From a candidate division TM6 bacterium GW2011_GWF2_28_16 (GTDB lineage: Bacteria; Patescibacteriota; Microgenomatia; UBA1400; PJMF01): a stretch of 64,000 nucleotides of DNA. The stretch lies in NCBI GenBank assembly GCA_001029715.1, contig CP011212.1, positions 705,066 to 769,065 on the forward strand, given 5' to 3'. The notes under the pieces are model-generated. The model had not been told where the DNA came from, searched no databases, and worked only from the letters and a program-made list of their open reading frames with translations. A program made the translations under genes and the position numbers. This document shows positions 5,467 to 25,566 of this stretch, one piece after another (position 1 is the stretch's first letter; each line of letters begins with the position of its first letter).

Positions 5467-5507
5467 AACTTGCTTGCAACTCATAAACTCTGCTATCATT
5501 AATAAGC

Positions 5508-6316: not shown

Positions 6317-7324
6317 ATGTCAATCACTGCCCTTGATATCGGGACTCATTCGATCAAAATCGTCATTGCTAAAGATAGTAAAAACCAAACTATCCAAAAA
6401 GCAATTGAAGTTCCAAACAAATTAGGCATGGTTTCACCAAAAAATGATCAAGAAATTTTACAGTTTTCAGAAATGGTAAATAATCTTTTTCATGATTACA
6501 AACTAGACCAAAATGATGTTCGCTTGAGTCTGCCGGAGTACTTAGTCAACACTAAAGTGATTGAAATTCCTTTTTTAAACGATGCAGAATTAGCTTCTGC
6601 TATTGGTTGGCAAGCAGAACAAGCCATTCCAATTCCTAAAAACGATCTAACTCTTCAATATCAGGTTCTACAAAAACCAGAAAAGAAAACAGCCAATGCT
6701 ACCATGAAGGTTTTGCTGGTTGGCTCTTATAAGTCTTTGGTTGAAAAAATTAACAATGTTTTCCTCAATATTGGCATTGAAGCAACACTGATGGAAACCC
6801 AAGTTTTTTCCGTGATTCGTTCTTTAGATATTGATGGAAATGATCCAGAAACAATTGTTTTACATATGGGTGCCAGTGGGAATGACATTGCTGTCATCAA
6901 TGGAGGCATGTTTGAGTTTGTTTTTAATTCCAAAACTGGTAGCACCCTTATTGACGCTGCCATCGCTCAAAGTTTTAATTTAGATAATAAACAAGCTCAG
7001 GAATATAAAATTAACTATGGCCTAGATCAAACTCAGATGGAAGGCAAACTTTTCCAAATTATCTCTCCAATCGTTGACAACTTAATTATTGATTTGCAAA
7101 AAACCATTCGTTTTTTCACTCAAAATCATCCTGAACAAAAAATTAAAAGAGTAGTTCTATTAGGTGGTCCAGCTCAGATGAAGGGCTTGGTTGAAAGAAT
7201 CAGTAAAGCGTTAAATTTGGAAGTCATGCAAGCCGCTCCTTTTGCCAAAGCTAAGGGGCAAATCCCAGAAACTAACCAGCTGAGCTTTAGTGTCTGTATG
7301 GGTCTAATTGCCAGAAAACTATAA
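6317..7324 (+). CDS. pilM: Type IV pilus assembly protein PilM (actin-like ATPase fold)
   Basis: N-terminal ALDIGTHSIKIV, typical of the PilM/FtsA actin fold. 335 aa fits PilM rather than FtsA. It is followed by pilN- and pilO-like genes. Confidence 0.7.
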   Translation: MSITALDIGTHSIKIVIAKDSKNQTIQKAIEVPNKLGMVSPKNDQEILQFSEMVNNLFHDYKLDQNDVRLSLPEYLVNTKVIEIPFLNDAELASAIGWQAEQAIPIPKNDLTLQYQVLQKPEKKTANATMKVLLVGSYKSLVEKINNVFLNIGIEATLMETQVFSVIRSLDIDGNDPETIVLHMGASGNDIAVINGGMFEFVFNSKTGSTLIDAAIAQSFNLDNKQAQEYKINYGLDQTQMEGKLFQIISPIVDNLIIDLQKTIRFFTQNHPEQKIKRVVLLGGPAQMKGLVERISKALNLEVMQAAPFAKAKGQIPETNQLSFSVCMGLIARKL

Positions 7325-7332
7325 AAGAGCTA

Positions 7333-7881
7333 ATGATCAATATCAATTTCTTAACCAATCGAGTTAATCAAAAAGGCAAACAAAAAGAAAAAGATGTGAA
7401 GATTTTTCGCATTAGTACTTATGTTTTAATTTCTTTGATTGTTTTGATGGTGGCTGTTTTTGCTTTTAAACTTTGGAATAATTTACAAATTAGCAACACT
7501 GATAAAAAAATCAAAGAATACAAAGCTAGTATTTTAGGTCAAGAAACAACTGAAATTGGTTACTTAATTTTTGTTAATAAAATTAAAGTTATTAGTGAAA
7601 TTTATAAAAAACGTAGTAATAAACAAGAAGCAATGAATTACTTTGCAGATGTTTTTGGTGATAAAGCAGAAATTGCCGGCATGAGCTATCAGGAAGATCA
7701 GGGCGGATTAATCTTACAAATAGACAGTAGCAATGTTTTTGATTTGCAAGACGTTAATAATACCTTAGATTCTCAAGCATTGCGCCAAGAATATGAAAAA
7801 CTAGAAAAAAGCGTTTTGACCCGCACCGATACTGGCAACTATAAACTAACTCTTAAATTGGAACTGAAAACGAATGATTGA
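7333..7881 (+). CDS. pilN: PilN-like type IV pilus inner-membrane protein
   Basis: Single N-terminal TM, size and position after pilM. Overlaps the next gene by 8 nt. Confidence 0.5.
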   Translation: MININFLTNRVNQKGKQKEKDVKIFRISTYVLISLIVLMVAVFAFKLWNNLQISNTDKKIKEYKASILGQETTEIGYLIFVNKIKVISEIYKKRSNKQEAMNYFADVFGDKAEIAGMSYQEDQGGLILQIDSSNVFDLQDVNNTLDSQALRQEYEKLEKSVLTRTDTGNYKLTLKLELKTND

Positions 7882-8713
7882 AAAAAAAGGCGAATTTAAC
7901 TACAAGCTTTTTTGGAATACTCGCAAAGAACTAGTTCTAGCAATTCTATTTTTTGTAATTAGTGCAATGATACTTTTTATTGGTATTATTAGTCAGATAG
8001 CTCCAATAAGAGCTGACCTTGACCAACTTAAGTCGCATCAAGCTGAGCTAGATAAATTTGCTGAAAAATCCGCTCAACTTCAACAATTAGCCGCCGATCC
8101 AAATTCTAATCAATTTTCAGCTATTGATGAAGTTCTGCCGTCTCACAAGCCACTCTTGGAAATCCTTAGTAACCTTAATGCTGTCGCCAATAATTCTGAA
8201 GTTATCATTAAAAATTTTAGCCTCAATCCTGGAGAAATTGCTACTGATACCACCAAAGTTAAAAAGAGTAGTTCTGATCAAAAATATGACTATCTAGACT
8301 TAGATTTTAGCGTCAGCGGAGCACTCTGGAAAATTCAAAACTTCATTAACTTAATTGAACAAGTAACCCCAATTAGCACTATCACTAATATTTCAATCAG
8401 TCGTAACATCGATGAAGATAAGAATGCTCAAGCTCAAGCAGATCTCGTTCTGCGCACTTTTTACTTTACTCAACCAATTAAAACCACAATTACCAGTCCG
8501 TTGCCAGTAATCGCTGCTTCTGAAAGAAAAATCATTAGTAGCATTAACGAGCTAAGTCCAAATAATTTAGAAAAACAGGAAAATGTCATCAGTGGAGATA
8601 GAGGTAACTTGTTTGGAATACAGAATAAAACCGTTGAAGAGCTAGAACAAGAATTGATACAAGCCACAGAATCAGCAAATACAGCAACTGAATCGGTACA
8701 AACTGAGCAATAG
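7874..8713 (+). CDS. pilO: PilO-like type IV pilus inner-membrane protein
   Basis: N-terminal TM followed by a coiled-coil region (QLKSHQAELDKFAEKSAQLQQL). Third gene of the pilMNO arrangement. Confidence 0.45.
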   Translation: MIEKKGEFNYKLFWNTRKELVLAILFFVISAMILFIGIISQIAPIRADLDQLKSHQAELDKFAEKSAQLQQLAADPNSNQFSAIDEVLPSHKPLLEILSNLNAVANNSEVIIKNFSLNPGEIATDTTKVKKSSSDQKYDYLDLDFSVSGALWKIQNFINLIEQVTPISTITNISISRNIDEDKNAQAQADLVLRTFYFTQPIKTTITSPLPVIAASERKIISSINELSPNNLEKQENVISGDRGNLFGIQNKTVEELEQELIQATESANTATESVQTEQ

Positions 8714-10951: not shown

Positions 10952-10965
10952 TAGGCAAAAAAGAG

Positions 10966-11123
10966 ATTTAAAGACCTAAATTTTTAAGCATGTTAGCTAC
11001 AAAGCCCTGTTTATGAAAAGGGATCTTGCTAATCTTGGCATCTTTTTCGATCTTGGCTTTATTGCCAGCGCGACGCTTGCCTTGCTCTACTCGAGTAATT
11101 TTATTTTTTGGTAGTGCACCCAT
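10966..11123 (-). CDS. rpmF: Probable 50S ribosomal protein L32 (Cys-less form). It is below the ORF-track size cutoff.
   Basis: Translation MGALPKNKITRVEQGKRRAGNKAKI... matches the L32 N-terminal pattern A-x-PK-x-K-x-S/T...KRR. Confidence 0.45.
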
Positions 11124-11278
11124 ATGATTTCTTCCTTTTTATTTTATTCTTAGCAAAGAAAGGATTATAACTGCTCTGGTAGATAAGCGCAAGATTTGAC
11201 TAACTTATAGGATACAGATACAATTTGTTTGTCGAGAAACACTTATAAAAGTTTTTTAAAGATATTAGGACTAAACAT

Positions 11279-13288
11279 ATGCCTTCTTATAGTTCAGCTT
11301 TTACAAAAGAAACAGACGCCTATTCTGCGCAAGAACAGCAATCTGGAAGTACAGAATTTTCCAAGGGATTATTAAATAGCTTAAAAAGATCTGACTCTCT
11401 CAGAAAAAAAGCTTTTCCAGGATTTTTTGATCGCCAAATTCCACAGGGTCAAAAGAGAGAGCTTGCTACTGATTTTAATAAAGCAGTCAGAGAATATAAC
11501 AGGAACAGACGTAAATTAATTGATATAAGCAAATTTGGCTATGAACCTGGAGTCAAGCTCTTTAGTATCCAAGAAATTTTGGAAAATACAGCCAAAATTT
11601 TTCAAAGGATAGGAGATACTTTATCCAAATATCCAAAAGATCGCACAGAACCTGTTACAAACTCTTCGAGCTTTGATCATTCTTTTGGTGGACAAAGAGT
11701 AAATAAATGGCTAGCTACAGGCTCCATCTTAACAATGGCTACTATATTGGCAAGTTGTACGCCTGAGGCAATTGTTTCCCCTTCACAAGAAGCTCCTGGA
11801 GATCAAGAAAATGATCCCAATTCTACACAAAGCATCATAGATAGCACTAGTGAAGGACAAGAAGTTGACCCAGGCTCACCTGAAGCCACTGAAGTCACCG
11901 CTGCCGAACTTGAAACCCTGAATACAGACATTAACCAAAAAATTGATGAAGCCGTCAAAGTGGCAGAAGAAACCAATCCTGCCGCCGCGGCCCAATTTGC
12001 TGAAAGCAACGGCGCAGAAACCGCCGCTAACATTTTCGCTAACAAACTAGCTGCAGAAAGAATTCTTGATCCCAAAGCTTATGAAATTTCTCTGATTTCA
12101 ACTAGTGGTCAAGCTCGCCTCGAATTAACTGCCGAAAGCCCTTGGGGCGCAGCTGGTGATGTAAGTGTTATTGATACTGGAGAAAAAGACGGCATGTTCC
12201 TATCTCTTGAAGGTGGACTGGAGTCTCTCGGAATAGCTGCCACTCCTGAAAATGTTAAAAACTACGAAATAGTTTTTGATGAGGGAGGTTGGTATGCTGC
12301 CATTAAAGATCAATCTGGAAAAGTTATCGGCGTGGTTGGTCAAGAAAAAAAATGGACAGCTGATATAGAAAATGCCACCGCACTTGAGCCTCTCTTTGAT
12401 ACTTCTAGCGCACTAGATACTTATTTGGAAAGTGGGAGCATTGACACTAGTGAAATGAGCGCAGCAGAATTCGCGGAGTTTAGCAAAGCACTAGCTGAAA
12501 AAAGAAATGAGGATAGGGGAATTAGCGTCGTTGTCTTTGACAACGGAGATGGCAATCCTGCTTATATAGACAATAATCTGGACATGAAACCATATGATGG
12601 CAATCCAGACCAAAGTGAAGTCATTGAAATGTTCTTGCCAGTTGCTGGCAAAGATAGTGCTGGCAACCTTCAGGTTGAACAAGATGGCAAAATCATCACC
12701 ATTAGTAATTCAGCAGATGTTGATTGGAATATGATCGTTACTGATTCAAATGATCCTAGAATTGATTGGCCAACAGGAGACGCTAAAGAAACTCTGAATT
12801 GGATGATAAATGAATATCCAACTGGTCCGGTTGTACTAAAACCAATGATTTTATTAGATAAAACACCACATAGTTTCTTTATCGAAGGATTTGGTATGAA
12901 GGGAGGATTCAAAGTATTGAGCGTGGAAGAAACTGACGCTAATGGCATGCCAATACTATTTAGGGTGTCGCTAGTAGAGCCAGTTGGACCATTATTACTA
13001 GAAGAAGGGACTGACTTAAAACTACGAAGAAATAGTGCAAGCTTGGAAATGAGTAATGATGATAAATTTTTCAGTAATTTACAAACAAATAGTGTTTACT
13101 ATATTGGATTGTCTACTAACGCAGATAAAACTTTTAAAATTAATTTTCCTCGTGTTGATTCCGCAGCACTAGATAATTATCAAGGCATAATAGCTAGTGG
13201 CAAGGCTTTCCCGATACTAACCAATCAAGAAAATGATAAAGAAAACTTTACAGTTTTCTTTACAGATTTATTTTTAAAAAAGAAATAA
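11279..13288 (+). CDS. Hypothetical large membrane-anchored protein (about 145-aa cytoplasmic N-terminus, one TM, about 500-aa extracytoplasmic domain)
   Basis: Single hydrophobic segment WLATGSILTMATILA. No recognisable catalytic motifs. First gene of a plus-strand operon ending in a prepilin. Confidence 0.5.
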   Translation: MPSYSSAFTKETDAYSAQEQQSGSTEFSKGLLNSLKRSDSLRKKAFPGFFDRQIPQGQKRELATDFNKAVREYNRNRRKLIDISKFGYEPGVKLFSIQEILENTAKIFQRIGDTLSKYPKDRTEPVTNSSSFDHSFGGQRVNKWLATGSILTMATILASCTPEAIVSPSQEAPGDQENDPNSTQSIIDSTSEGQEVDPGSPEATEVTAAELETLNTDINQKIDEAVKVAEETNPAAAAQFAESNGAETAANIFANKLAAERILDPKAYEISLISTSGQARLELTAESPWGAAGDVSVIDTGEKDGMFLSLEGGLESLGIAATPENVKNYEIVFDEGGWYAAIKDQSGKVIGVVGQEKKWTADIENATALEPLFDTSSALDTYLESGSIDTSEMSAAEFAEFSKALAEKRNEDRGISVVVFDNGDGNPAYIDNNLDMKPYDGNPDQSEVIEMFLPVAGKDSAGNLQVEQDGKIITISNSADVDWNMIVTDSNDPRIDWPTGDAKETLNWMINEYPTGPVVLKPMILLDKTPHSFFIEGFGMKGGFKVLSVEETDANGMPILFRVSLVEPVGPLLLEEGTDLKLRRNSASLEMSNDDKFFSNLQTNSVYYIGLSTNADKTFKINFPRVDSAALDNYQGIIASGKAFPILTNQENDKENFTVFFTDLFLKKK

Positions 13289-13350
13289 AATTAAATTTTA
13301 AGCTTACTTGCTTGTTGCTATTGTAGTAAAAAAGATGATACGATTTATTC

Positions 13351-13959
13351 GTGAAAAAGAAAATTTTTGTCTCTGTAATTAGTTTGCTTTGTCTACTTGG
13401 ATTAATCTTCTTTTTTTACAATACCTATTCAAAAAATCGTAAACCTAGTGGTACAACAAAGAGACTAGTCTATAATCCAGAATTTTCCAGCTGGGAAGAG
13501 ATTGATTCTTCAAAAGACCCTGTTTCTGAATATGATCGTTCAGACATTCTAAAAAAAGATGACAACCAGAGTGGTCTGCATAATGAGACTGTATTAAAAG
13601 GTTACTTTGATCACTACGATGAAAATAATCAAGAGTTATCAATTAAGTTTTTAGTACCCTTCACTCAAGGTATATTTGAAATCGCCAAGCTGAAATTATT
13701 ACCAAGTCAAACCATTCACTGCGCTCCAGAAACTTATATTGATCCCAATACTGGTAAAAGTTATAGCTTAAAAAAACTAGCTATACCTACCAAAACAGGA
13801 AATACTCTGTGGATTCCAACAGAAGAACCAATTACTTTTGAAAATTTCCTGGCACAAACCAATGAAACAACCTATTTGTACACTCAATTAATTGAAGATT
13901 ATGATTCTCAAAAAATAAACTACGTACAAAAATTAATTGTCATCGGCTTATGCGAATAA
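13351..13959 (+). CDS. Hypothetical membrane-anchored protein
   Basis: N-terminal signal anchor MKKKIFVSVISLLCLLGLIFFFY. Its last 10 nt overlap the next gene. Confidence 0.5.
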   Translation: MKKKIFVSVISLLCLLGLIFFFYNTYSKNRKPSGTTKRLVYNPEFSSWEEIDSSKDPVSEYDRSDILKKDDNQSGLHNETVLKGYFDHYDENNQELSIKFLVPFTQGIFEIAKLKLLPSQTIHCAPETYIDPNTGKSYSLKKLAIPTKTGNTLWIPTEEPITFENFLAQTNETTYLYTQLIEDYDSQKINYVQKLIVIGLCE

Positions 13960-15746
13960 AACTACTCATTAATTTAATGTTTATAGCAATCTTCAGTATT
14001 GCACTTACTCCGTCTGCTATCGCACTCACAGAAGAGGAGATAGCTGAGGCAATAGCCGCTTGTGCAGCTAAAACCACCTGCACAGAATGCACTGGCGTTT
14101 GTGGCACACAGAATTGCACTTATAGCAAAGCTTACACTAGCTATATTTATGATCCACCAACTTATCAAGTTTGTGACTTACAATGTTGGGACCAAAATAT
14201 GGTTGATGCCACTCCCGATGGTGAGTATTGGACTGTTCCTGGACATGAAGATGTGACCTGTACAGAAGAATGTTGGCCTGTTTCTTACAATGATGCAATA
14301 AATCAAAGTTGTATTACAGAATCAGCCAACGATATTCTCTGCAACTGCGATAATCCAACTGACCCTACTCCTACACCCATTGATGGTGAGGGTGGTGGCT
14401 CTACAACTCCAGAAACCATCCCAGATTTATTTGGATTTATAAGTGGCAGAGTACAAGAAGATAACGGAGCTGCATTTAGTGGCAATTTTTGCACTCAGGC
14501 AACTACCAATCCATTAGCTAATAATAATTTTAGTATCACAGCTGGAACATATCCTGGAACTTTTAGTACGACCGCTGTAGGTGCTTATGAATCTATCGTT
14601 CGTGATGGCAGCACCTACACTGTTTCTCTAGATTTATCTAATCAAAATGGCTCCACCGAATATATTTGTTCTTGTCCAGCAGCTGCTGACCCAAATAATC
14701 CTTATCTCTGTCGTTACTATGGCGTAAGCCCAGATACTGCAAATGTTAATTTTTATCTACAAGTTAGCAATCTCTCCAATGACTCTTGGTTTCAAGTCTT
14801 TGGTGGCAATTTATTTAGTCGCTATGGCATAGCTAGTAGCGTACCTGCTACTTCTTGTGCTGCAGATGCTTCCTGCCAAGCTGCTTTATCAGCTTTACCT
14901 CTTGGCTCCAGTAATCAAAACTTCAGTGGTTTTGCAATTAGCAATCTTGCCAATTCTGGCAGTATTATTAGTAGCAGTAGCGAAGGTTTTGATCATTCTT
15001 ATCTTACCCTTGCAGATAGAATTAATAACGTTAATTCTTATGCAGTTAGTACCGATATTAACCAACTATCCTATGATTATTTTTATAAGTTAGTCGAGGA
15101 TGATCTTCATGAATTTAGCAATGGAGAAAACTACGAACCGTTGCTCAGTGATTTAACCGGCAACGCCTGGTGGAGTAGCACCGAAACTAACTTCATCAAG
15201 GTTAACGGCAATGTTAACATAGACGAAACCCAAGGCTTTAATCTTACGAGTGATCAAAGCCTGGTTGTCTTCGTTGAAGGCAATCTAACTCTTGATGACA
15301 GTAATACTGGTGACAGTAATCATAAAATTATCAGCGTTGCGAATGGTGGTTTTCTAGCCTTCTTCGTCAATGGCAACATTTTGGTAAGCGCTGATGTTGG
15401 CTATGAACTTAATCCTGACGTTCCAACTGTCCCAACAGCTTCAGTAGCTAATAGCAATATTGAAGGTGTCTTTATTGCTAATGGGACTTTAACTATTGGT
15501 AATAAATTTGACATTGGAGAGGTCCCTCCAGATCGTAAATTCATCGGTGCAGGCACTTTTGTCGGCTGGACTGGCGTCAATCTAGATCGTACTTTTGACG
15601 ATGGAGTTTTTGGCCCTATTTTAAACAATAATCAAGCTATAGAAAACTTTATTTATCGCCCAGACTTCTTAGCTAACTGGCCAACTAAACTTAAGGCTAG
15701 CTTGAGTAACTGGCGTGAAGTTGATCCTCAACTCATTAATCAATAA
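13950..15746 (+). CDS. Secreted Cys-rich protein, candidate pilus-associated adhesin
   Basis: Signal peptide, then about 20 Cys in the first 130 mature residues, a PTDPTPTP linker, then an Asn/Gly/Ser-rich region with beta-rich (possibly beta-helix-like) composition. Its stop overlaps the start of the downstream prepilin (TAATG). Confidence 0.55.
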   Translation: MRIKLLINLMFIAIFSIALTPSAIALTEEEIAEAIAACAAKTTCTECTGVCGTQNCTYSKAYTSYIYDPPTYQVCDLQCWDQNMVDATPDGEYWTVPGHEDVTCTEECWPVSYNDAINQSCITESANDILCNCDNPTDPTPTPIDGEGGGSTTPETIPDLFGFISGRVQEDNGAAFSGNFCTQATTNPLANNNFSITAGTYPGTFSTTAVGAYESIVRDGSTYTVSLDLSNQNGSTEYICSCPAAADPNNPYLCRYYGVSPDTANVNFYLQVSNLSNDSWFQVFGGNLFSRYGIASSVPATSCAADASCQAALSALPLGSSNQNFSGFAISNLANSGSIISSSSEGFDHSYLTLADRINNVNSYAVSTDINQLSYDYFYKLVEDDLHEFSNGENYEPLLSDLTGNAWWSSTETNFIKVNGNVNIDETQGFNLTSDQSLVVFVEGNLTLDDSNTGDSNHKIISVANGGFLAFFVNGNILVSADVGYELNPDVPTVPTASVANSNIEGVFIANGTLTIGNKFDIGEVPPDRKFIGAGTFVGWTGVNLDRTFDDGVFGPILNNNQAIENFIYRPDFLANWPTKLKASLSNWREVDPQLINQ

Positions 15747-16255
15747 TGAAGAACCAAAAAGCTTTTACTTTGCTCGAACTACTAATTACTTCTAGTATTA
15801 CTGCCTTATTGATGTTGGCTATCAGCAGCCTTTTTATTACTTTTCTTGCCACTGCTTATAAAAGTCGCATTAGTCAAAATCTCCGTGAATCGGGTGGCAA
15901 CGCCATGACACAAATTATTGACATGATCAGAAGTAGCGGAGAAATTACCTCGACTTGCGATAGCGAAACACCACTCGACCACATTACTGTCACTGGTGAA
16001 GATGGAGTAGAAAGCACCATCATTGAAGAAGATGACCGCATTGCCTCAGTCTCAGCTGAAAAAAAATTCTATCTAACTGAAAGTAGCGCTGATTCCAATT
16101 ACGTTTCTGATTTAGTTTTCAATTGTGACTTAACTCCAGAGGGGAAAAAATACATTGAAGTCAACTTCTCTCTCCACACTGGAGACAACGAAGCCAGCAA
16201 TAGCGCTAGATCGACCAGTCTGGATTTTAGCTCAGGAGTGGCGACGAGGAATTAG
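15746..16255 (+). CDS. Type IV prepilin-like protein (minor pilin or pseudopilin)
   Basis: Class III signal: QKAFTLLELLI, with Glu at +5 relative to the predicted cleavage after Ala. Confidence 0.7.
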   Translation: MKNQKAFTLLELLITSSITALLMLAISSLFITFLATAYKSRISQNLRESGGNAMTQIIDMIRSSGEITSTCDSETPLDHITVTGEDGVESTIIEEDDRIASVSAEKKFYLTESSADSNYVSDLVFNCDLTPEGKKYIEVNFSLHTGDNEASNSARSTSLDFSSGVATRN

Positions 16256-16323
16256 GTTTTTTGACAAGATATCCAAAAAAGACGCTTAGATCAACGAGTA
16301 TTCTCACACTATCACTAAAAAAA

Positions 16324-16332
16324 TGTTATAAT
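16324..16332 (+). promoter_or_regulatory. Extended -10 promoter element (TGTTATAAT) for the SH3b-protein gene
   Basis: TGn-TATAAT match about 200 nt upstream of the SD-preceded start at 16536. Confidence 0.4.
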
Positions 16333-16535
16333 GACTCTCGAGGTTTTATACCCCGTGATTTTTTGCAATCGCGAGAAATTGGTTACAAACCTTAGTTCTT
16401 TAATAAGTGAAGAGAGATTTTTGCGGTGAGAACAAATTTATTTTTTAAAAATGGATTTGCCCTCACCGCAATCAAACAAAGTGATGAGGCCAAGAAAATT
16501 TTTTGAACTATTCCAGATATCAAGGAGGTATCTCA

Positions 16536-18163
16536 TGGAAAAGCAAAAAGGATTGTTTTTTGTTGTAGTAGTTGCTGTTATTCTAATTTTTTTAGGAATA
16601 AACAGCGACAATGTTGCAGCCTATGGCTGCAGCATAACAGAGTTTTCGATGACGCCAGAAGGACAGGTTTCATTGGGAACCCACGTTTTTTTGAGTGGAA
16701 AGAGTAGTTGCGCCACCGTGAAATTTACGGTGGACGGAGTTTCCAAAGCTGAAATTGGAACTTCAAACCAAACCGAGACCCTCAAAACTGAGGAGATCGG
16801 AACTGGCACTCATGAAGTCTGTTTTCTTGCGAGAGATAACAGCACCTCTAGTTGGGATAATGTAGCTAAAAGCTGCAAATCTCTATACGTACAAGGCTCC
16901 CAAGGAGCTCCCGCAGATAGCACCGTCAACGGGCATTGCTGGGTAAGCAGTTTTACTGCTTCACCAAGCAAAGTTCAAATTGGACAAAGCATCCAATTAG
17001 CTGGCTACGGTCAATGTGACGGGAATGCTCGTGCAAGTAAATTTTACATTGACGGGAAGTCTTTTGCTGAATTTGGTGGCAACACTAATTCAGCAGCATG
17101 GAATACCAGCGGGTATTCCACGGGAAATCATAAAGTTTGCTTCTTAATAACGAGTGGTGAATGGAGTGATGCGGCTAAAAGTTGCACCACTGTAACTCTT
17201 AAGAAAGAGGAGCAGGCTTCAAATCCCCCTGCACAAGGTGGATCTTCAGATAATAGAGATTCTGGTAACGACTCAAGCTCCAGTAGCTCATCTAACTCAG
17301 ATAGCTCATCCAACAACAATCCATCGTCAAGCTCTACCTCTCAGACTTGCCTAAAACATGTCGAGCCTTTCTCCGCAGGAGACCTTGGAGAAGTGACCCC
17401 TGGTGCTTCGAATAATCTCCGTTCTTGTGCAGGATTATCCTGTAAAAAAATAGGGGAAATTCCAGCCGGAGGACAATTTGAAGTGCTCAAAGGCGCGCAA
17501 TGCGTCGATGGGTACTGGTGGTGGAAAGTAAAATACGGCAACCTAACTGGCTGGACTGCTGAAGGTAATGCTCAGAAAGCATGGCTGATTAAAGCAGGAA
17601 CCAATCAAACTGCTAATAACAATTCTGATATCCAGAAAGATATTACCGTAAACATCTATTCTGACCACTGGAGAACAACATATAAGTTCTTGGTAAATAC
17701 AAGAACTTGTTCTATCACCAATGGTGCCGAAATAATTTCGAAAGAGATTAAATATTTCGACAACCGAATAGGACAGTTAGAACCTGATAAAACAGCAGGT
17801 TCAAGATTTGTTCTTTATTTTGCAGAAAATACTGGACAATCAGAAATATTTCGCAAAAAGGTTGAGAGTGAAATAAAAGAGGTAACAAATTGCTATAGAA
17901 TCTACTACAATGTTGGCAAAACCACTATGGACAGCTCTGGATTGGGGAATGTTCTTTTTGGATACGCCATGGCAAAAATCCCAAAGTGGACGGAGGATAG
18001 AATATCAGATTTATTTCAAGGTTTAAATAAAGATTCGCTGGGATGGATATTTGATAATTATGATGATGGAAAACAGCGTGAGCTCGGAAGAATTTTATCC
18101 GAACAAAGCAATTTTTCCACATCAAATGTAGAAAAAGTAGCTTGGGATATAGATCTAAATTAA
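16536..18163 (+). CDS. Membrane-anchored surface protein with a Ser-rich linker and a bacterial SH3-like domain
   Basis: Start reassigned to the ATG at 16536, preceded by AAGGAGG. The ORF-track start at 16451 lies inside a 10-bp inverted repeat. TM segment FFVVVVAVILIFLG, poly-Ser tract, SH3b-like GGQFEVLKGAQCVDGYWWWKVKYGNLTGWTAEG. Confidence 0.55.
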
Positions 18164-18188
18164 CTTCTCTTCACAATTTATTATAAAA

Positions 18189-18217
18189 AGGACTGGGAAT
18201 ATTCTCAGTCCTTTTTT
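18189..18217 (+). terminator. Rho-independent terminator (bidirectional)
   Basis: AGGACTG-N10-CAGTCCT followed by TTTTTT and preceded by AAAAA. Confidence 0.7.
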
Positions 18218-18220
18218 ACT

Positions 18221-18490
18221 TTAGAATCCAATCGAAATCGCTAATAGAAAAAAAGGTATCAGAACAGCAAGAGAAATAATACTGCAAATAGCCAAAAGCC
18301 AATAGAAAAAAACTCTTTTTTTGATAAAAGAATAAATAAAAAGAAATAAAAAAACTAATATGAAAATTATTGAGAATAAATGTTTTTCAATGTAAAAAAT
18401 ATTTAAAACAAAAAAAATTAAACTCATGAGTAAGAAAAATGCTAAAATTTTATTGTCAATAATTTTCATAAAAAAATACTTAAACACCAA
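18221..18490 (-). CDS. Hypothetical small multi-TM membrane protein (very AT-rich)
   Basis: Phe/Ile/Leu/Lys-rich hydrophobic ORF in a segment of about 20% GC. May be spurious. Confidence 0.3.
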   Translation of the reverse strand: MVFKYFFMKIIDNKILAFFLLMSLIFFVLNIFYIEKHLFSIIFILVFLFLFIYSFIKKRVFFYWLLAICSIISLAVLIPFFLLAISIGF

Positions 18491-18887
18491 ATCTATTTCT
18501 TATAGTAGGCACTAAAAAAGTTGTAAAAGAAGTCATAACCATTACAAAAGTGTTAAAAATTAAAATCACTGAAAAAGAGGCCAAAATATTTTTTAAAACA
18601 AAATGACCACTTTTTTGATTATATTTTGCTTCCTTGAATGATAAAAGTGCTGACAATACAGTGGAAAGAAAAAAACAAGGAATAATAAAAAATATTTCCA
18701 TAAAAAGAACTTTTACTAAAAAATTATCAAAAAAAACAAAAGAAAAAACAGGATAGGATTCTAATGCATAAAGCCCAATGAAAGAAATTACCATTGCTAA
18801 AAATAAAAAGAACAAAGAAGATATTATTCCAGATATTCTTCCAATTTTATAAGCTTTATTTTCAATAATATCTTTAAGAAAATTCAT
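18480..18887 (-). CDS. Hypothetical multi-TM membrane protein (very AT-rich)
   Basis: Three or four predicted TM helices in the same AT-rich segment. Confidence 0.3.
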   Translation of the reverse strand: MNFLKDIIENKAYKIGRISGIISSLFFLFLAMVISFIGLYALESYPVFSFVFFDNFLVKVLFMEIFFIIPCFFLSTVLSALLSFKEAKYNQKSGHFVLKNILASFSVILIFNTFVMVMTSFTTFLVPTIRNRFGV

Positions 18888-18928
18888 TGATAGATCATAT
18901 TATACTATAGCTATCTCTACCTGCATAA

Positions 18929-19426
18929 TTAATAGTTCTCAAAATTCTGCTCAATAGTCAGATCTTTTGCCTTATTACCATCTTGCCACAACAAATCGAT
19001 TTCTACTTTTAGACTGTTGGCGTTATTGAAATTAACCACTGCTTCTCTTTGAAATTCATATTTTGCTGCTTCAAGAAAATCTCCATCAGCACAAGCGCCT
19101 AAATTGGCTGACGCGCTTGCCACGCTATCAGGTAAGGAATTTAAGCAATAAACAGCTCCATCATCCAAAGGAGTAGAGAAGCTAGACCAACTGTTAATAG
19201 AACGCTCTCTACGAAAAAACTCTAGGGCTTCTTGAGCTTTTTGAAGAGCTAATTGTTTTTGTTCATTGCTATCTGACAATTTTATCGACATGGAAATCAT
19301 TGAACCAACGGCGGTTAAAACTAAAGCTATCACAGAAATAGCGATCAGAATTTCTACCAAAGTAGATCCAGCTTGCCTTTGATTTTTTTTATTGATATCT
19401 GACATCGATATTACCTCCCTGATCAA
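18929..19426 (-). CDS. Type IV prepilin-like protein (minor pilin)
   Basis: RQAGSTLVEILIAISVIALVL: G-S-T-L-V-E with Glu at +5, then a hydrophobic helix. Confidence 0.65.
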   Translation of the reverse strand: MIREVISMSDINKKNQRQAGSTLVEILIAISVIALVLTAVGSMISMSIKLSDSNEQKQLALQKAQEALEFFRRERSINSWSSFSTPLDDGAVYCLNSLPDSVASASANLGACADGDFLEAAKYEFQREAVVNFNNANSLKVEIDLLWQDGNKAKDLTIEQNFENY

Positions 19427-19922
19427 AATTAAGGATCACTTCATCTTCTCCAGAGCTAAGCGTAGCGCTACCACTTGCTACCGAACTTCCTCCCAAATAA
19501 ACATTGCTTCCACGCAAAGGCAAAAAAGAAACTCTAAAATTTTGACTCAAAACAATATTATTCTGATCAATTAAATAGTTTTCATAGGTTAAAAGATCAT
19601 TGTTTTCACAGCGAACCTGAGTATTTAAAGAAATTTTATTCTCTGCATTTATAATGGAAAAAACCTCAATGGCGGCTAATTTACTGCAAAAACCAATTTC
19701 TTCATCTCCCAAAAAACCATTCTGAGCTTTAGAACGAGCATCTTTAATCATTACTTCGATTGCTGATCCAGCTTTATAGAGATTTTGCTTGTTAAGAAAA
19801 CGTAGATAGTTGACTGCCCCCATTGTCAAAACAAGAACTAGAACTGAAACCGTGATTAATAATTCGACCAAAGTAAAAGCAGTTTGATTTCTAGAAAGCG
19901 ATGATGTCATAAGCTTCTGCAT
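19389..19922 (-). CDS. Type IV prepilin-like protein (minor pilin)
   Basis: NQTAFTLVELLITVSVLVLVL class III signal peptide. Confidence 0.7.
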   Translation of the reverse strand: MQKLMTSSLSRNQTAFTLVELLITVSVLVLVLTMGAVNYLRFLNKQNLYKAGSAIEVMIKDARSKAQNGFLGDEEIGFCSKLAAIEVFSIINAENKISLNTQVRCENNDLLTYENYLIDQNNIVLSQNFRVSFLPLRGSNVYLGGSSVASGSATLSSGEDEVILNFDQGGNIDVRYQ

Positions 19923-20313
19923 CTGGCTCTAAAGTTGCGGTTAAAGTAACTTTTATACAATTATTAGAAGCATTAATCGCAGTACAACTAGCCTGGTAGG
20001 CATATGTCGCATTATTCTTAGGATCTTCGATCACTGGCTCAGATAAATATTCATCGGCATATAAGCTAGTTACCAAAGCAGGAAAATTGACACTATTACT
20101 CTCAGAATAATAAGCATTGTCTTGTTTATATAGGGTTAAGGCTTGCCTCATGGTCTCTAAATCGGCTTTTCGCTTAGCATTGCGACTGCTAACTCCAGCC
20201 TGAGTAAAACTAACTAATCCTGCCGCTGTTAGCAAGATGATAATTGTCGCTGAAACCAAAAGTTCAATCATGGTAAAAGCTTTTTGTTTTTTTAGCATTT
20301 TTGCTTCTTTCAA
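19891..20313 (-). CDS. Type IV pilin / GspG-like pseudopilin
   Basis: KQKAFTMIELLVSATIIILL plus a downstream RNAKRKADLETMRQAL helix, typical of T4a pilins and GspG. Confidence 0.75.
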   Translation of the reverse strand: MKEAKMLKKQKAFTMIELLVSATIIILLTAAGLVSFTQAGVSSRNAKRKADLETMRQALTLYKQDNAYYSESNSVNFPALVTSLYADEYLSEPVIEDPKNNATYAYQASCTAINASNNCIKVTLTATLEPDAEAYDIIAF

Positions 20314-20316
20314 TCT

Positions 20317-20736
20317 TTATTGCAGATTACTTAGACAATAATAATCACCAGTGCCATAGGTACACTCCGTCACCCCAACAGGCAAGTCACTGGAATTTCC
20401 TACGCTACTTTCTAGCAAGGCACAAACACAATAAGAATCAGCACTTGAAGTTAAGTTGATACTATAAATATATGGTGAAGTGTTTTTAGGATCCTCTGGC
20501 AAACCAGCAGGAAAAATAATCACATCGCCAGCTTCACCCTGATCTGTTGGATAAGCTCCCTCTCTGGAATAAAATTGCTCAAAACCATTTTGCATGGCTT
20601 TAATATCAGCTTTGCGCCTAGCATCACGACCTTTTTTCTGTGCAGTCGAAAAAGCAGCAGTCCCCAAAGTTACTAATATACCAATAATCGAAATCACCAC
20701 TAAGATTTCTAACAGAGTAAAAGCATTTTTTTTCAT
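20317..20736 (-). CDS. Type IV pilin / GspG-like pseudopilin
   Basis: MKKNAFTLLEILVVISIIGILV and KGRDARRKADIKAMQNGFEQF. C-terminal Cys pair. Confidence 0.75.
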   Translation of the reverse strand: MKKNAFTLLEILVVISIIGILVTLGTAAFSTAQKKGRDARRKADIKAMQNGFEQFYSREGAYPTDQGEAGDVIIFPAGLPEDPKNTSPYIYSINLTSSADSYCVCALLESSVGNSSDLPVGVTECTYGTGDYYCLSNLQ

Positions 20737-20738
20737 AA

Positions 20739-21740
20739 TTATCTATTTACCTTCACTATCATCTTAGCTAATTCATTGTCAACTGACAACACTCCTTGAA
20801 CGTCCTTCGCACTAATCTTGACCTGAAAATAGCATGTTTTAGTTTGACAAATGTAAGAGTGGTCTACACTATCTTGCAAACTAGCACTTTGCCAAGTTTC
20901 ACCATCGCCAAAATCAATATTTACTTCCACAGGCAGAGCAATTCCATCATTCTCTTCAACTTTCTGTCTGGAAAAAATAGCTTGTAGTTTCTGTAACCAA
21001 GATGTTTCTTCGTCTCGACTAATTTGTCCAGAAAAAACATCGTTCTTACCATTTCCTAAAACGTAGGAAAAACTAATTGTTTCACCAGATAAAACCTCGA
21101 TTGTTCTTGTCGTTTCATCAAGTGCTGGCTGACTATTAAATAATAGAATTGAAGGTCTAAACAAACAGGATTCGTAACAACTCTTTGGGCAGTCATTAAC
21201 TGAAGTTAGCTGTTCGCCAAGACCACTTTGAACATCTAAACTGCAACATTGATAGTTATGCGCCTCACAAGAACTCAAGGGTCCTTGATCATAATCAAAA
21301 TCTGGTTTACTTAAATAATTGGAATAAATTTTTTGTGCATCAGTGTAAATATATAAATTACGTCCAAGAACTTCTAGCTCAATAAAGGATGGCAATTTTT
21401 GATCGTTGATAATAAAACCTGAGCCAAAAGATGCTTTTGAAACTAAAGGAAGCATTTTTTTACTTGATAAAACAATTGGGGAAGTAGCGAAATCACTGCA
21501 AACTACCTCAAGATTATATTCTTTGTCTGAAGTAAATTTAATTTGAGTCCAATAATCTTGGCTATAAGAGAATTGATTAGTGCAGGCTGCTGCATAATTC
21601 TTGTTCAGAAGGGAATTGTAATCATTTTTAATAATGTTTGACTCTAAAGCCAATAGAATTTCCCTTCCAAAAAGAAAAGCTAAGAGACCTAGTCCTAAAA
21701 TCCACAGCATGGAAAAAAAGAAAAATTTAAGTATGCGCAT
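20739..21740 (-). CDS. Hypothetical Cys-rich membrane-anchored protein embedded in the pilus operon
   Basis: N-terminal TM. Multiple Cys clusters (CEAHNYQCCSLD, CPKSCYESC). Located between pilD and the minor pilins. Confidence 0.5.
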   Translation of the reverse strand: MRILKFFFFSMLWILGLGLLAFLFGREILLALESNIIKNDYNSLLNKNYAAACTNQFSYSQDYWTQIKFTSDKEYNLEVVCSDFATSPIVLSSKKMLPLVSKASFGSGFIINDQKLPSFIELEVLGRNLYIYTDAQKIYSNYLSKPDFDYDQGPLSSCEAHNYQCCSLDVQSGLGEQLTSVNDCPKSCYESCLFRPSILLFNSQPALDETTRTIEVLSGETISFSYVLGNGKNDVFSGQISRDEETSWLQKLQAIFSRQKVEENDGIALPVEVNIDFGDGETWQSASLQDSVDHSYICQTKTCYFQVKISAKDVQGVLSVDNELAKMIVKVNR

Positions 21741-21746
21741 AATTTT

Positions 21747-22586
21747 TTAGAATAAAAAGCCAAAATACCATTGCCAAATCGCTTCTCCAAAAACAAAAGT
21801 AATCAAAAAAGCCACAATCAAAAAAGGAGCAAAAGGCAGGGCTTGACCGATTTTTTTCTTTCCTGTTAACAATAACAGCATAGCAAAAATTCCACCAATA
21901 ATAAAAGCCAAAAAGATACTTAAAATCACCTTGGGCCAAGATAAAAGAAAAGCCAATGGAATCATTAATTTAATATCTCCAAAACCTAAAGCTGGCTTAT
22001 GCAAAATTTTGGAAGCTGAAAAATAAAGCGCATAGAAAAAGACGCTAGAGAAGAGTACCGCTAAAATTGGTAACAGCCAATTTTCTCCAGAAAAGAGCTG
22101 TGCTAAAACCGCTAAAATTATTAAGAGCGCAACAAAAAAATCTGGCACAATTAAATACTGCAAATCGGCCAACAACGCAAACAACAATACAAAAGTAAAT
22201 AAAAAATAGAGCATCAGCTGTTGAATTGGCAAAAGCTGTAAAGAAGGTAACTGCAAATAAGCCACCGCAAAAGTAAGACCTAAAACAAAAGCTAATAACT
22301 CACTCAAAAAATAAATTCTAGCAATTTTTTTATGGCAATGACGACATTTGCCTCTAAGTAACAAAAAAGAAAGCAGAGGAACATTGTCATACCAAGCTAT
22401 TTGTTGGTGACAACTTTCACATTTTGAACGACCTTTAACGAAAGATTCTTCTTTGGCAGTTCTAAAAATAACGACATTAAAAAAGCTTGCTAAGAAAGAT
22501 AAAAACAAAGCAAAGAAAAAAATTAGAACCAGTTCAAAAAAGAACATAATTATGGTAAGCAGGAATATTCTTCGCCAGCTACACAA
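21747..22586 (-). CDS. pilD: Prepilin peptidase (A24 family) PilD
   Basis: N-terminal zinc-ribbon CESCHQ...CRHCHKKI. Multi-TM body with catalytic Asp in GFGDIKLM. The true start is probably an internal Met downstream of the overlap with the pilin gene. Confidence 0.85.
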   Translation of the reverse strand: MCSWRRIFLLTIIMFFFELVLIFFFALFLSFLASFFNVVIFRTAKEESFVKGRSKCESCHQQIAWYDNVPLLSFLLLRGKCRHCHKKIARIYFLSELLAFVLGLTFAVAYLQLPSLQLLPIQQLMLYFLFTFVLLFALLADLQYLIVPDFFVALLIILAVLAQLFSGENWLLPILAVLFSSVFFYALYFSASKILHKPALGFGDIKLMIPLAFLLSWPKVILSIFLAFIIGGIFAMLLLLTGKKKIGQALPFAPFLIVAFLITFVFGEAIWQWYFGFLF

Positions 22587-23194
22587 ACACTAGCCGCAGC
22601 TGATTGCAAATCATCTGGTAAACCAGATCCAGCTTCATCTATGCAACGAGTCGCAGCTTCTTCTTGCATAGCACCAGACTGAGGTTTGAAACAAACATAA
22701 AGACTTTCACCTGGATCACCAGAGTAGAAAACGTAAAGATGATTATAGTCAGTCTTAATTACCTTATCTACAAAACTACGCTTGACTTCATTAGTCCCAA
22801 CACAAGTACCAGCGGTATTACCATTGGCAATCTTATCTAGGACATAGCATGGAGTATCAACAGAATCATCAGCCCAAGCATCGATTGAACCGCCATCTAC
22901 AGTAATTGATGTATCTAAAGAAACACCTCTAAAAGTTAAAGCCGCGTCATTATTTGGATTGCTTACCCATGGATAATAACCTTTGTAAGCATAAAAACGA
23001 TCAATGGCACTTAGAAGTTGCTCTGCGTCAGAGCGGGAGCCAGTGTCACGACCACGATTAATTTGTTCAATAGGATTAATAGCTGCTAAAACTGCAACTG
23101 CTAAAATACCCAAAATTGCAATGACAATCAGCAACTCAATCATGGTAAAAGCCAGCTGGCTTTTAAGTTTAGAGAGAAATTTATTTTGTTTCAT
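22550..23194 (-). CDS. Type IV pilin, candidate major pilin
   Basis: MKQNKFLSKLKSQLAFTMIELLIVIAILGILAVAVLAA. About 210 aa with C-terminal Cys pairs (disulfide D-region). It is the first pilin after pilC. Confidence 0.75.
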   Translation of the reverse strand: MKQNKFLSKLKSQLAFTMIELLIVIAILGILAVAVLAAINPIEQINRGRDTGSRSDAEQLLSAIDRFYAYKGYYPWVSNPNNDAALTFRGVSLDTSITVDGGSIDAWADDSVDTPCYVLDKIANGNTAGTCVGTNEVKRSFVDKVIKTDYNHLYVFYSGDPGESLYVCFKPQSGAMQEEAATRCIDEAGSGLPDDLQSAAASVCVAGEEYSCLP

Positions 23195-23281
23195 AATGTT
23201 TATCCCAAATAATTCCAAATATATAAGCAGATTAGAAGCTCAACTTCCAGTCTATCTCAAAAAAGCCAAGCTTTTCAAGTA

Positions 23282-24484: not shown

Positions 24485-24502
24485 AACAATAAATAAAGAT
24501 AA

Positions 24503-25561: not shown

Positions 25562-25566
25562 GATTT

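Follow-up and report, generated by a model that had tools for sequence, protein, structure and literature searches.

In an ultrasmall candidate-phyla-radiation (CPR) bacterium of the Pacebacteria, four genes at positions 11279-16255 of the 64,000-nucleotide stretch of DNA that we analyzed (the window) belong to the type IV pilus gene cluster as an accessory arm, and the same holds in related Microgenomates. We lean towards the view that the secreted 598-residue product of the third gene acts as a tip or priming protein in the manner of PilY1 and MshQ, without being their homolog, and that the product of the fourth gene is its dedicated minor pilin. By analogy, the layout, in which the gene of a secreted multi-domain protein is translationally coupled, beside pilus genes, to that of a conserved minor pilin of its own, is that expected of a pilus-tip protein, and the module may help to explain how host-dependent CPR bacteria recognize their partners. 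The four proteins are named by their length in amino acids (A669, B202, C598, and D169). All of their open reading frames lie on the plus strand (A669, 11279..13288; B202, 13351..13959, with a GTG start; C598, 13950..15746; D169, 15746..16255), with a 62-nt gap between A669 and B202, a 10-nt overlap of the B202 stop with the C598 start, and a TAATG junction between C598 and D169 that indicates translational coupling. Both the co-directional, partly overlapping arrangement and the TAATG coupling reported in a preliminary description of this DNA are therefore borne out. A promoter-like site on the plus strand (TTGACT-17-TACAAT, 11196..11224, 10/12 matches) falls within the 155-bp gap between the A669 gene and a divergent small ORF, probably rpmF (10971-11123, minus strand), and is no more than a candidate, because such sites are no more numerous in the region than in shuffles.

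D169 is a bona fide prepilin, as had been proposed from its class III signal. It scores above the cut-offs of both Pfam N_methyl (30.9 bits versus 21.2) and TIGR02532 (21.3 versus 16.3), and its leader, MKNQKA followed by FTLLE, places Glu at +5. The alpha1 helix is near-invariant, two Cys are conserved, and the C-terminus carries an invariant ...LDF..G..TRN motif. The database matches span the N-terminal helix only and give no assignment to the PilK/PilX/GspK family. GspK-type tip pseudopilins are not known to carry Glu5, and its retention in D169 counts against a tip reading. A prepilin peptidase gene is present at 21747-22586.

The preliminary description treated this prepilin as an orphan and the module as separate from the main pilus operon. 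That operon, recognized by its pilus gene matches (18929..27381, minus strand), converges on the module and contains, in order, pil165 (PilV/GspI-like), pil177, pil140, pil139, p333 (an unassigned 333-aa protein), PilD, pil222, PilC, PilT, and PilB, with pil165 as its last gene; its prepilins are pil139, pil140, pil165, pil177, and pil222. An order in which nusB, on the opposite strand, is followed by A-B-C-D and then by the converging pil165...pilB is found in loci L001-L008, L012, L016, and L018-L022, and the 3' end of D169 lies -4 to +25 nt from that of pil165 in the nine loci in which both gene ends could be read. The prepilin is thus no orphan, since in relatives the 3' end of that operon lies directly beside it, and the separation holds for the source genome and its sister L019 but fails in the other related loci. 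What splits module from operon is a lineage-specific insertion of 2.7 kb (16256..18928), lying outside the conserved module and comprising E570 (16451-18163, plus strand, with Big_7 and SH3_3 domains), tm89 (18221-18490, minus strand), and tm135 (18480-18887, minus strand); loci L001-L008, L016, and L018 lack it, and L019 alone shares it. When the module is flipped, the series pil177 (GspH-like), pil165 (GspI/PilV-like), D169, C598 would mirror fimU-pilV-pilW/X-pilY1. On the other side, pilM, a pilN-like gene, and pilO (6317..8713, plus strand; PilM_2 1.4e-37, PilO 3.6e-6) lie upstream of an S16-rnc-acp-nusB block that itself precedes the module.

A metagenome scan of C598 homologs yielded 85 evaluable loci, in 51 of which, spanning about 25-98% identity to C598, the homolog is directly followed by a D169 ortholog inside a pilus cluster. 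The linked prepilin starts -44 to +61 nt from the stop codon of the C598 homolog, and, when an HMM profile was built solely from globular residues 46-169 of D169, 46 of these 51 pilins matched it. Linked loci with enough flanking sequence also contain 4-7 prepilin ORFs together with pilC, pilD, and pilT. An arrangement that recurs in 51 independent loci is far beyond chance, and the prepilin coupled to a large secreted protein, as first described, proves to be a conserved, usually translationally coupled pair, kept across loci that, in a tree built from the conserved core, fall into essentially a single deep clade. In 33 evaluable loci from other subfamilies, forming separate deep clades, no pilin lies within 7 kb of the A-B-C trio; the pilus link is thus clade-specific and not what defines the family, whose basic function therefore does not depend on a pilin.

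These pilin-free loci lend some weight to a reading in which A669, B202, and C598 form a cell-surface module independent of the pilus, C598 being wall-, S-layer-, or surface-associated and held by B202 and/or A669, with the last minor pilin gene merely adjacent and co-expressed in one clade and both serving host attachment without a tip complex. Some of the loci adjoin Wzy_C-like, LemA, or glycosyltransferase genes, one relative matches an S-layer glycoprotein model, even L015, a homolog with 54% identity, lies in a rearranged island devoid of pilins, and linked and unlinked loci alike have a B-like gene that overlaps or adjoins the start of the C598 homolog. We nevertheless consider this reading rather unlikely, given that the clade of C598 itself retains the C598-D169 adjacency with hardly an exception among evaluable loci, at identities as low as about 30%, that the stop and start codons of the pair mostly overlap or nearly abut, and that the downstream pilin is a dedicated ortholog and not just any pilin. 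Moreover, the pilin is accompanied by a C-terminal extension of C598: 4-9 residues following a W-x-E anchor, with the motif [VI]-x-P-[QRK]-[LFS]-[ILF]..., are present in 41/43 pilin-linked and 3/20 unlinked homologs (p = 1.7e-10 in a Fisher test that ignores phylogeny). The exceptions are L055 and L081, which are linked and lack the extension, and L077, L080, and L087, which are unlinked and possess it. Because the linked set is essentially one clade, this correlation may reflect very few evolutionary events.

C598 belongs to an uncharacterized family of 1,432 representatives having a conserved C-terminal beta-rich core and variable N-terminal parts, and its predicted structure is of moderate confidence overall (pLDDT 72.7). 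A Sec-type signal peptide (residues 1-26, ending in AIA before LT; 13950..14027, plus strand) agrees with the earlier statement that the protein is secreted; its poor conservation (30% identity in the family), set against the almost invariant pilin helix of D169, argues that this N-terminus is not pilin-like. The variable Cys-rich beta domain (residues 27-134) and the Pro/Thr linker (residues 135-158) that follow (14028..14423, plus strand) include the least conserved part of the protein, the N-terminal domain, at 29% identity. About 20 Cys had been counted in the first 130 mature residues, and although the Cys-rich character of the domain stands, the count does not: residues 27-134 contain 12 Cys, and the whole protein 18. 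Longer relatives carry fn3, Big_2, F5/8 type C, CBM_4_9, or SdrD_B domains in place of the variable domain, so that adhesin-type or glycan-binding modules sit N-terminal to the same core. Conservation then rises to 52% in a beta-sandwich (residues 159-292; pLDDT about 85-90) with four invariant Cys and weak fold matches to Ig-like and EMC7-like sandwiches, which, together with a low-confidence middle region (residues 293-372) containing two conserved Cys, was delimited from predicted structure and conservation (14424..15065, plus strand). The C-terminal beta-rich domain (15066..15704, plus strand; pLDDT about 90) reaches 67% identity, and the beta-helix-like region anticipated earlier is predicted here, the top PDB fold match being the beta-helix of the ice-binding protein 7ehk at a non-significant E of 0.04. 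This domain is related to Pfam DUF7305 (PF23981), a family without known function of which a literature search turned up no mention; it is matched in the C-terminal core by 8/65 diverse relatives (best E-value 2e-8) and not by C598 itself at E up to 1. The chain ends in the tail SNWREVDPQLINQ (residues 586-598; 15705..15743, plus strand), a candidate docking peptide for a minor pilin, which is 83% conserved over the last 13 residues and yet has pLDDT <50 at residues 587-598.

Many polysaccharide lyases and hydrolases have beta-helix folds. This, together with the nearly invariant charged core residues D528, R547, R570, D572, and E590 and the carbohydrate-binding modules of some relatives, would fit an enzyme positioned by the pilus to degrade or modify a host cell-wall polymer. 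We regard such a role as quite improbable, as searches of Pfam, NCBIfam, and the PDB, by sequence or by fold, place C598 in no family or fold of enzymes, neither a lyase nor a hydrolase is among the Foldseek hits at E <0.1, which are led by the non-catalytic ice-binding protein, and the invariant positions are mostly Gly, Cys, Pro, or aromatic, as is typical of a scaffold. C598 is thus non-enzymatic by every test available. The same searches found neither sequence nor fold homology to PilY1/PilC, nor any Pfam PilY1/PilC hit, which extends to the fold the lack of sequence relationship noted at the outset. A further proposal, that C598 and D169 form a tip DNA receptor for natural competence, scavenging nucleotides for a reduced genome as a counterpart of Thermus ComZ-PilA2 or Neisseria ComP, draws on the fact that ComZ is a large beta-solenoid-containing protein encoded among pilins. 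CPR bacteria are also thought to take up DNA by means of type IV pili and ComEC (PMC6744442). This proposal seems to us very improbable indeed: C598 (pI 4.05, Lys+Arg 3.3%) and D169 (pI 4.5) are both extremely acidic, whereas the surfaces on which known DNA-binding pilins depend are electropositive, the N-terminus of C598 is not pilin-like, and no ComZ match by fold or sequence is found among its PDB hits.

A669 and B202 are co-conserved partners of C598. A669 has a basic, helical, cytoplasmic N-terminal domain (residues 1-~120), a long stalk that is acidic and disordered, and, at the C-terminus, a conserved globular domain (residues ~375-669). The single transmembrane segment claimed for it corresponds to one hydrophobic stretch preceding the stalk (residues ~143-160), which ends in a lipobox-like L-A-S-C; its Cys, C160, never varies in alignment A5 and hardly ever in A4, and the protein is possibly lipid-anchored. 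As C160 is the sole Cys, A669 is not Cys-rich, and the plural "large Cys-rich surface proteins" of the preliminary description does not apply. The gene is the fastest-evolving of the module (23-35% identity where C598 has 49-62%), and neither by sequence nor by fold does A669 match anything in Pfam, NCBIfam, or the PDB; these searches revealed neither an enzyme family or fold nor homology to PilY1. B202 is, as described, membrane-anchored: a small bitopic protein with an N-terminal anchor and an ectodomain of about 170 aa that has conserved Cys and a C-terminal LCE/LCD, it finds no family or PDB match in Pfam, NCBIfam, and PDB searches. A B-like neighbor is present in most loci with enough upstream sequence, prepilin-linked or not, at -47 to +6 nt from the start of the C598 homolog (typically -4, -10, or -11), and B202, rather than D169, is the more constant neighbor of C598 homologs across linked and unlinked loci.

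If C598 is indeed a tip or priming protein, it would be exported by the Sec pathway and captured by D169, translated right after it from the same mRNA, through the short conserved C-terminal peptide. The resulting complex would join the minor pilins pil165 and pil177, prime pilus assembly, and come to lie at the pilus tip, exposing the variable, disulfide-rich N-terminal domain of C598 as the candidate ligand-binding part in adhesion. B202 may keep C598 at the membrane until hand-over, a role proposed because, in a monoderm cell, a secreted protein would otherwise escape. Such a working would be that of PilC/PilY1 and MshQ, even though C598 is not homologous to them and has a beta-helix-like core and no beta-propeller.

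Among known systems, Saccharibacteria (TM7x), of the same superphylum as the C598 host, encode the large pilus-locus proteins PilX1 and PilX2, which have accessory domains, lack a predicted PilD signal, and are proposed tip adhesins for host binding (PMC11623550). These are described as lollipop-shaped and pilin-like, with a beta-jelly-roll or beta-propeller domain, whereas in C598 the Sec signal is poorly conserved, a pilin helix is lacking, and the core fold differs; a D169-type partner and the A-B-C trio are absent from those descriptions. Thermus ComZ and Caulobacter CpaL/TadG are likewise large tip-complex components, and CpaL uses a C-terminal strand (PMC12918778), but both have a pilin-like domain of their own, which C598 lacks, and ComZ binds DNA, whereas C598 is strongly acidic. 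The parallel behind our preferred reading is with PilY1/PilC, which acts as tip adhesin and priming protein of the type IVa pilus in Pseudomonas, Neisseria, and Myxococcus. It, too, is a large protein that carries a Sec signal, is not a pilin, and is encoded next to minor pilin genes, with a variable N-terminal and a conserved C-terminal part and a short conserved extreme C-terminal peptide (PMC12918778, PMC7541494). In PilC, PilY1, and MshQ the last ~10 residues strand-complement a PilK-family minor pilin and so license assembly (PMC12918778), a mechanism that the tail extension of C598 matches by analogy and that would entail contact with its pilin. PilY1/PilC differs in having a seven-bladed beta-propeller where C598 has a beta-helix-like, DUF7305-related core; moreover, the C598 gene precedes that of its pilin, D169, with translational coupling between the two, C598 comes with two extra membrane proteins, A669 and B202, and its host is a monoderm CPR bacterium. 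MshQ of the Vibrio MSHA pilus is a large protein, not a PilY1 homolog, that is encoded beside pilIJK-like genes, and although no relation between it and C598 was detected, and family, gene order, and organism type all differ, MshQ provides a precedent for non-homologous proteins in the PilY1 role.

Reading the open reading frames confirmed the exact positions of the four plus-strand genes of the module, which encode proteins that we name by length: A669 (11279-13288), B202 (13351-13959, with a GTG start), C598 (13950-15746), and D169 (15746-16255). A gap of 62 nt separates the first two genes, the B202 and C598 genes overlap by 10 nt, and the C598 stop and D169 start share the sequence TAATG, a junction that bears out the translational coupling of C598 to the prepilin proposed in the preliminary description. 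A search of positions 10500-19500 against Rfam gave no match, and promoter and terminator scans of the region gave results at chance level. Divergent from the A669 gene lies a 51-residue open reading frame (MGALPKNKITRVEQGKRRAGNK...; 10971-11123, minus strand), the product of which we take to resemble ribosomal protein L32 (rpmF). A669 is 100% identical to the hypothetical protein UT13_C0001G0722 of Candidatus Pacebacteria bacterium GW2011_GWF2_38_9.

D169 begins with MKNQKA/FTLLELLITSSITALLMLAISS, a class III signal in which the slash marks the cleavage site, and this MKNQKA/FTLLE leader is matched by Pfam N_methyl at 30.9 bits (cut-off 21.2) and by TIGR02532 at 21.3 bits (cut-off 16.3), in agreement with the earlier assignment of the last gene as a prepilin. 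Matches of D169 to NCBIfam and PDB profiles are restricted to the N-terminal helix, and Glu-5, which bears on homology to GspK/PilX/PilK, is present; profile searches of all four module families against PDB sequences likewise returned nothing beyond the pilin N-terminal helix. The same genome encodes a prepilin peptidase and assembly machinery, with the cognate PilD at 21747-22586 (A24_N_bact, 95.7 bits; Peptidase_A24, 49.5 bits) and with PilM and PilO detected, while PilB, PilT, and PilC are conserved among relatives. D169 is, by its sequence, a genuine prepilin that is predicted to be cleaved, N-methylated, and incorporated into a pilus. The residue at position -1 is alanine, a feature shared with four of the window's five other prepilins; alanine thus replaces the canonical glycine in five of six (KA/F, NA/F, TA/F, and LA/F; 15746-15770, 19891-20313, 20317-20736, 19389-19922, and 22550-23218), glycine being found only in the main-operon prepilin pil165. 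More distant linked clades, in which a C598 homolog is directly followed by a prepilin, have G/F at the cleavage site.

C598 carries a signal peptide with an AIA/L site; it is a predicted Sec-exported, non-pilin protein, and its gene adjoins a minor pilin gene. We count 12 cysteines in residues 27-134 and 18 overall, fewer than the approximately 20 that had been placed in the first 130 mature residues, and A669 contains a single cysteine, so that the plural label of large Cys-rich surface proteins fits one protein only. In an AlphaFold2 model of C598 built from 52 sequences (pLDDT 72.7), the signal peptide is followed by a Cys-rich beta domain at residues 40-131 that a Pro/Thr linker joins to a beta-sandwich (160-290); a beta-rich domain (375-585) lies nearer the C-terminus, and the tail after it is unstructured. 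The sandwich and the C-terminal domain are modelled with confidence, the region between them poorly. Foldseek searches with this model against PDB and BFVD returned nothing at E below 1e-3; the best matches, above that threshold, were to an ice-binding-protein beta-helix (E 0.04) and to Ig-like sandwiches. A669, B202, and C598 have no sequence-profile match in Pfam, NCBIfam, or PDB. The view that C598 is unrelated to PilY1/PilC is upheld by these searches: PilY1 is absent from the Foldseek matches, and in place of the C-terminal beta-propeller and the Pfam PilY1 or Neisseria_PilC match that define that family the model has a beta-sandwich and a beta-helix-like domain. Nor did any profile or fold match assign A669 or C598 to a catalytic family, the outcome that was to have overturned the original proposal. 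That C598 might be a pilus-associated enzyme degrading glycans is improbable in our estimation, given that no enzyme signal was found for it, and we regard as more improbable still the suggestion that C598 and D169 form a ComZ-like DNA receptor, against which extreme acidity speaks.

An exhaustive profile search reveals a large family of C598 relatives, comprising 1,432 cluster representatives (clustered at 50% identity) with an E-value limit of 1e-3, or 330 when the limit is tightened to 1e-30. The conserved part spans profile positions ~150-590 and ends at, or a few residues before, the C-terminus in most of the 150 matches listed; these 150 proteins range from 250 to 1,600 residues and have variable N-terminal regions. 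Among 65 diverse members, N-terminal extensions contain fn3, Big_2, F5/8 type C, CBM_4_9, and SdrD_B modules, and eight of the 65 match Pfam DUF7305 (PF23981) inside the C-terminal beta-rich core (best E 2.1e-8), at a position that in the related protein P0196 corresponds to approximately residues 400-460 of C598. C598 itself does not match DUF7305 at E up to 1, and a literature search found no mention of this domain. Within the close family C598 becomes more conserved towards its end: the figure is 29% for the Cys-rich domain, 67% for the C-terminal domain, and 83% for the final 13 residues. We considered, and rejected, the possibility that the N-terminus of C598 is a degenerate pilin helix, as has been proposed for PilX1/2 of TM7x, in that this segment is poorly conserved whereas the D169 helix is nearly invariant.

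The arrangement of C598 beside a prepilin is retained well beyond the window. A metagenome scan with a 15-sequence alignment added 80 loci, giving 94 in all, of which 85 could be evaluated, and in 51 of these the start of a prepilin open reading frame lies between -44 and +61 nt relative to the stop codon of the C598 homolog; at one further locus (L003) the prepilin follows a Fic insertion. Since 46 of the 51 downstream pilins match a hidden Markov model built only from the globular part of D169 (residues 46-169), they are orthologs of D169 rather than any pilin. Linked loci with enough flanking sequence also contain 4-7 prepilin open reading frames together with pilC, pilD, and pilT. At some linked loci (L025, L026, L027, L029/L030, L033, L044, and L045) two tandem C598-family paralogs, of ~600-680 and ~440-490 residues, precede a single D169-type pilin; both carry a C-terminal extension, and the second has lost the anchor Trp. 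In a neighbour-joining tree of the conserved core, the linked loci group in a single deep clade to which the window belongs. Three loci inside that clade are exceptions: L023 is at a contig end, L015 is in a rearranged island, and L028 is probably partial. The unlinked loci fall in separate clades. No prepilin was found within 7 kb at 33 evaluable loci, bar a motif-only match in an unrelated 329-residue membrane protein (L087). In both classes a B202-like small membrane protein usually precedes the C598 homolog, overlapping or nearly abutting its start (typically -4, -10, or -11 nt), and the gene upstream of the B202-like gene often encodes a large protein, in many cases one bearing a lipobox. 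The A-B-C trio is consequently the core of the family, and the pilin a clade-specific but very stable addition. The existence of trios without a pilin, and the fact that B202 is the more constant partner of C598 homologs, favor an alternative in which the proteins make up a pilus-independent surface module that merely neighbors a pilin gene; we consider this a possible but rather doubtful explanation for the module in the window. Pilin-free trios adjoin envelope and glycan genes encoding LemA, a Wzy_C-like O-antigen ligase, PMT_2 glycosyltransferases, and NeuB (L061, L067, L072, L075, L010, and L066), and the trio of L066 lies beside nusB-acp-rnc-S16 and pilO-pilN-pilM, yet has no D169-type pilin.

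Coupling to the pilin may also be reflected in the C598 tail, which is 83% conserved and predicted to be unstructured. In PilC/PilY1 the last ~10 residues strand-complement the sheet of a PilK-family minor pilin, as do those of MshQ by modelling (Ellison et al. 2026, PMC12918778), and by this complementation assembly is licensed and the adhesin kept at the tip (PMC12918778). An extension of 4-9 residues, [VI]-x-P-[QRK]-[LFS]-[ILF]..., lies beyond the W-x-E anchor in 41 of 43 proteins of linked loci, whereas most proteins of the unlinked clades end two residues past the anchor (WQETN, WQQTQ), and an extension is present in 3 of 20. The association of extension with pilin linkage is strong (Fisher p = 1.7e-10), with the qualification that the proteins are not phylogenetically independent and that exceptions occur in both directions. 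The C-terminus of C598 appears to be tied to D169, and this correlation is the strongest indirect evidence that it is.

The module is part of the pilus cluster, not a separate locus. Its physical separation from the main pilus operon, as originally described, proves to be an accident of the lineage sampled by the window: eight related genomes (Pacebacteria, Microgenomatus, and others) share the gene order S16-rnc-acp-nusB (minus strand), A-B-C-D (plus strand), and pil165-pil177-pil140-pil139-p333-pilD-pil222-pilC-pilT-pilB (minus strand), where pil139, pil140, pil165, pil177, and pil222 denote prepilins of the main operon, and the stops of the D169 and pil165 genes are -4 to +25 nt apart in the nine loci for which both ends were read. 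With the convergent operons ending so close together at this junction (L001-L008, L016, and L018), there is no room for terminators between them, and the convergent transcripts must overlap. The separator in the window is a segment of 2,673 nt (16256-18928) that encodes E570, in which Big_7 and SH3_3 domains were recognized, as well as the small membrane proteins tm89 and tm135; it was found elsewhere only in the sister genome L019, the proteins of which are 95-100% identical to those of the window, A669 excepted, and all other relatives are without it. E570 has an N-terminal anchor followed by Big_7, a Ser-rich linker, and SH3_3, and the 18-20 kb interval that includes tm89 and tm135 is AT-rich (~31% GC). 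No flanking repeats able to explain the 2.7-kb insertion were found. A 25-nt inverted repeat (84% complementary, 16421-16471) spans the E570 start codon at 16451, and the space separating the convergent genes E570 and tm89 contains a 16-nt hairpin (94% complementary, 18185-18216) with a T-run after it, probably a terminator that works in both directions. In other genomes as well, the module and the point at which it meets the pilus operon form an insertion hotspot: an AAA_14/DUF4143 gene lies between the D169 and pil165 homologs of L012 (5700-6896), a Fic/DOC gene (4622-5731) parts the C598 homolog of L003 from that of D169, and an insertion sequence with a DDE_3 transposase truncates the C598 homolog of L010 (10268-11397). 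Within the operon, the p333 gene (20739-21740, minus strand) is flanked in every relative by pilD on one side and the pilin genes on the other, and encodes a conserved 333-residue protein (51-65% identity in relatives) with an N-terminal anchor and 10 cysteines and without family assignment; it is another uncharacterized but fixed component of the pilus operon.

Identity to the window proteins falls from D169 (66-75%) through C598 (49-62%) and B202 (31-50%) to A669 (23-35%). In A669 a basic, helical N-terminal domain leads into a single hydrophobic segment that closes with a conserved, lipobox-like LASC; a disordered, acidic stalk and a conserved globular end follow. A word-indexed search found only 12 relatives, even with a 12-sequence profile, and the resulting model is shallow (pLDDT 59) and usable only at residues 375-669, a region that gave no fold match. 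The L-A-S-C sequence at residues 157-160, within the part encoded at 11279-11760 (residues 1-160), follows the sole hydrophobic segment, and its Cys is conserved in the family; lying ~140 residues from the start, behind a conserved helical cytoplasmic domain, it is unusually placed for a lipoprotein signal. In L003 and L066 the protein that occupies the corresponding position has a normal N-terminal lipoprotein-like signal. Compared with its homolog in the sister genome L019 (4234-6339), A669 is 87% identical over 75% of its length, though neighboring proteins are 95-100% identical; the two differ by a replaced N-terminal domain and by ~1.2 kb of extra DNA upstream. B202 was considered as a degenerate PilK-like pilin, an assignment discounted on reading its sequence, in which Pro and Gly directly after the anchor leave no long alpha1 helix.

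On balance, we lean towards an explanation in which C598 is a protein of the priming complex and pilus tip. C598 would be exported by the Sec pathway and captured through its C-terminal peptide by D169, translated immediately after it; it would then join the priming complex and end at the pilus tip with its variable N-terminal domain facing outward. Tight coupling of B202, C598, and D169 would suit a monoderm cell that might otherwise lose a secreted protein. The role of C598 might be that of an adhesin, that of a licence for assembly alone, or both. A more far-reaching and distinctly tentative proposal is that the C598 family and its dedicated D169-type pilin form a CPR-specific, independently evolved tip-licensing complex, in which a minor pilin receives, in the manner of PilY1, the C-terminal peptide of a beta-helix protein and a hypervariable disulfide-rich or modular N-terminal domain sets the host cell recognized by the episymbiont. 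A669 and B202 might then be the hand-over and anchoring device needed when there is no outer membrane, and the pilin-free trios the ancestral surface module that gave rise by recruitment to the pilus-linked form.

Few surface machines are conserved in CPR bacteria; type IV pili belong to these and are thought to mediate host attachment, and we know of no information on the occupants of the pilus tip outside cultured Saccharibacteria. The present analysis identifies a large unannotated family, one deep clade of which shows tight coupling to a minor pilin of its own within the pilus cluster. The architecture of the family unites a conserved C-terminal core, ending in a peptide that correlates with the pilin, and variable adhesin-type N-terminal modules. 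Family, pilin coupling, and architecture together make C598 a concrete and testable candidate for what determines host recognition in Microgenomates and Pacebacteria, and the findings point to a functional context for Pfam DUF7305, or for part of it at least. The association of C598 with its pilin is robust and broad and gives a testable prediction, while the functional steps in these uncultured organisms are ones that we infer. The putative tip candidates of Saccharibacteria, PilX1 and PilX2, are pilin-like (PMC11623550), and C598 differs from them in this respect. When inverted, the order pil177 (GspH-like), pil165 (PilV/GspI-like), D169, and C598 would resemble that of fimU-pilV-pilW/X-pilY1. 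On the reading that we favor, C598 would work as PilY1, PilC, and MshQ do, even though it shows no homology to that family, having neither a propeller nor a Pfam match. It seems somewhat more probable than otherwise that C598 fills the PilY1 role in CPR pili as a non-homologous protein with a dedicated pilin and two extra membrane partners, in which case it would be the second non-homologous example, after MshQ, of PilY1-type strand donation.
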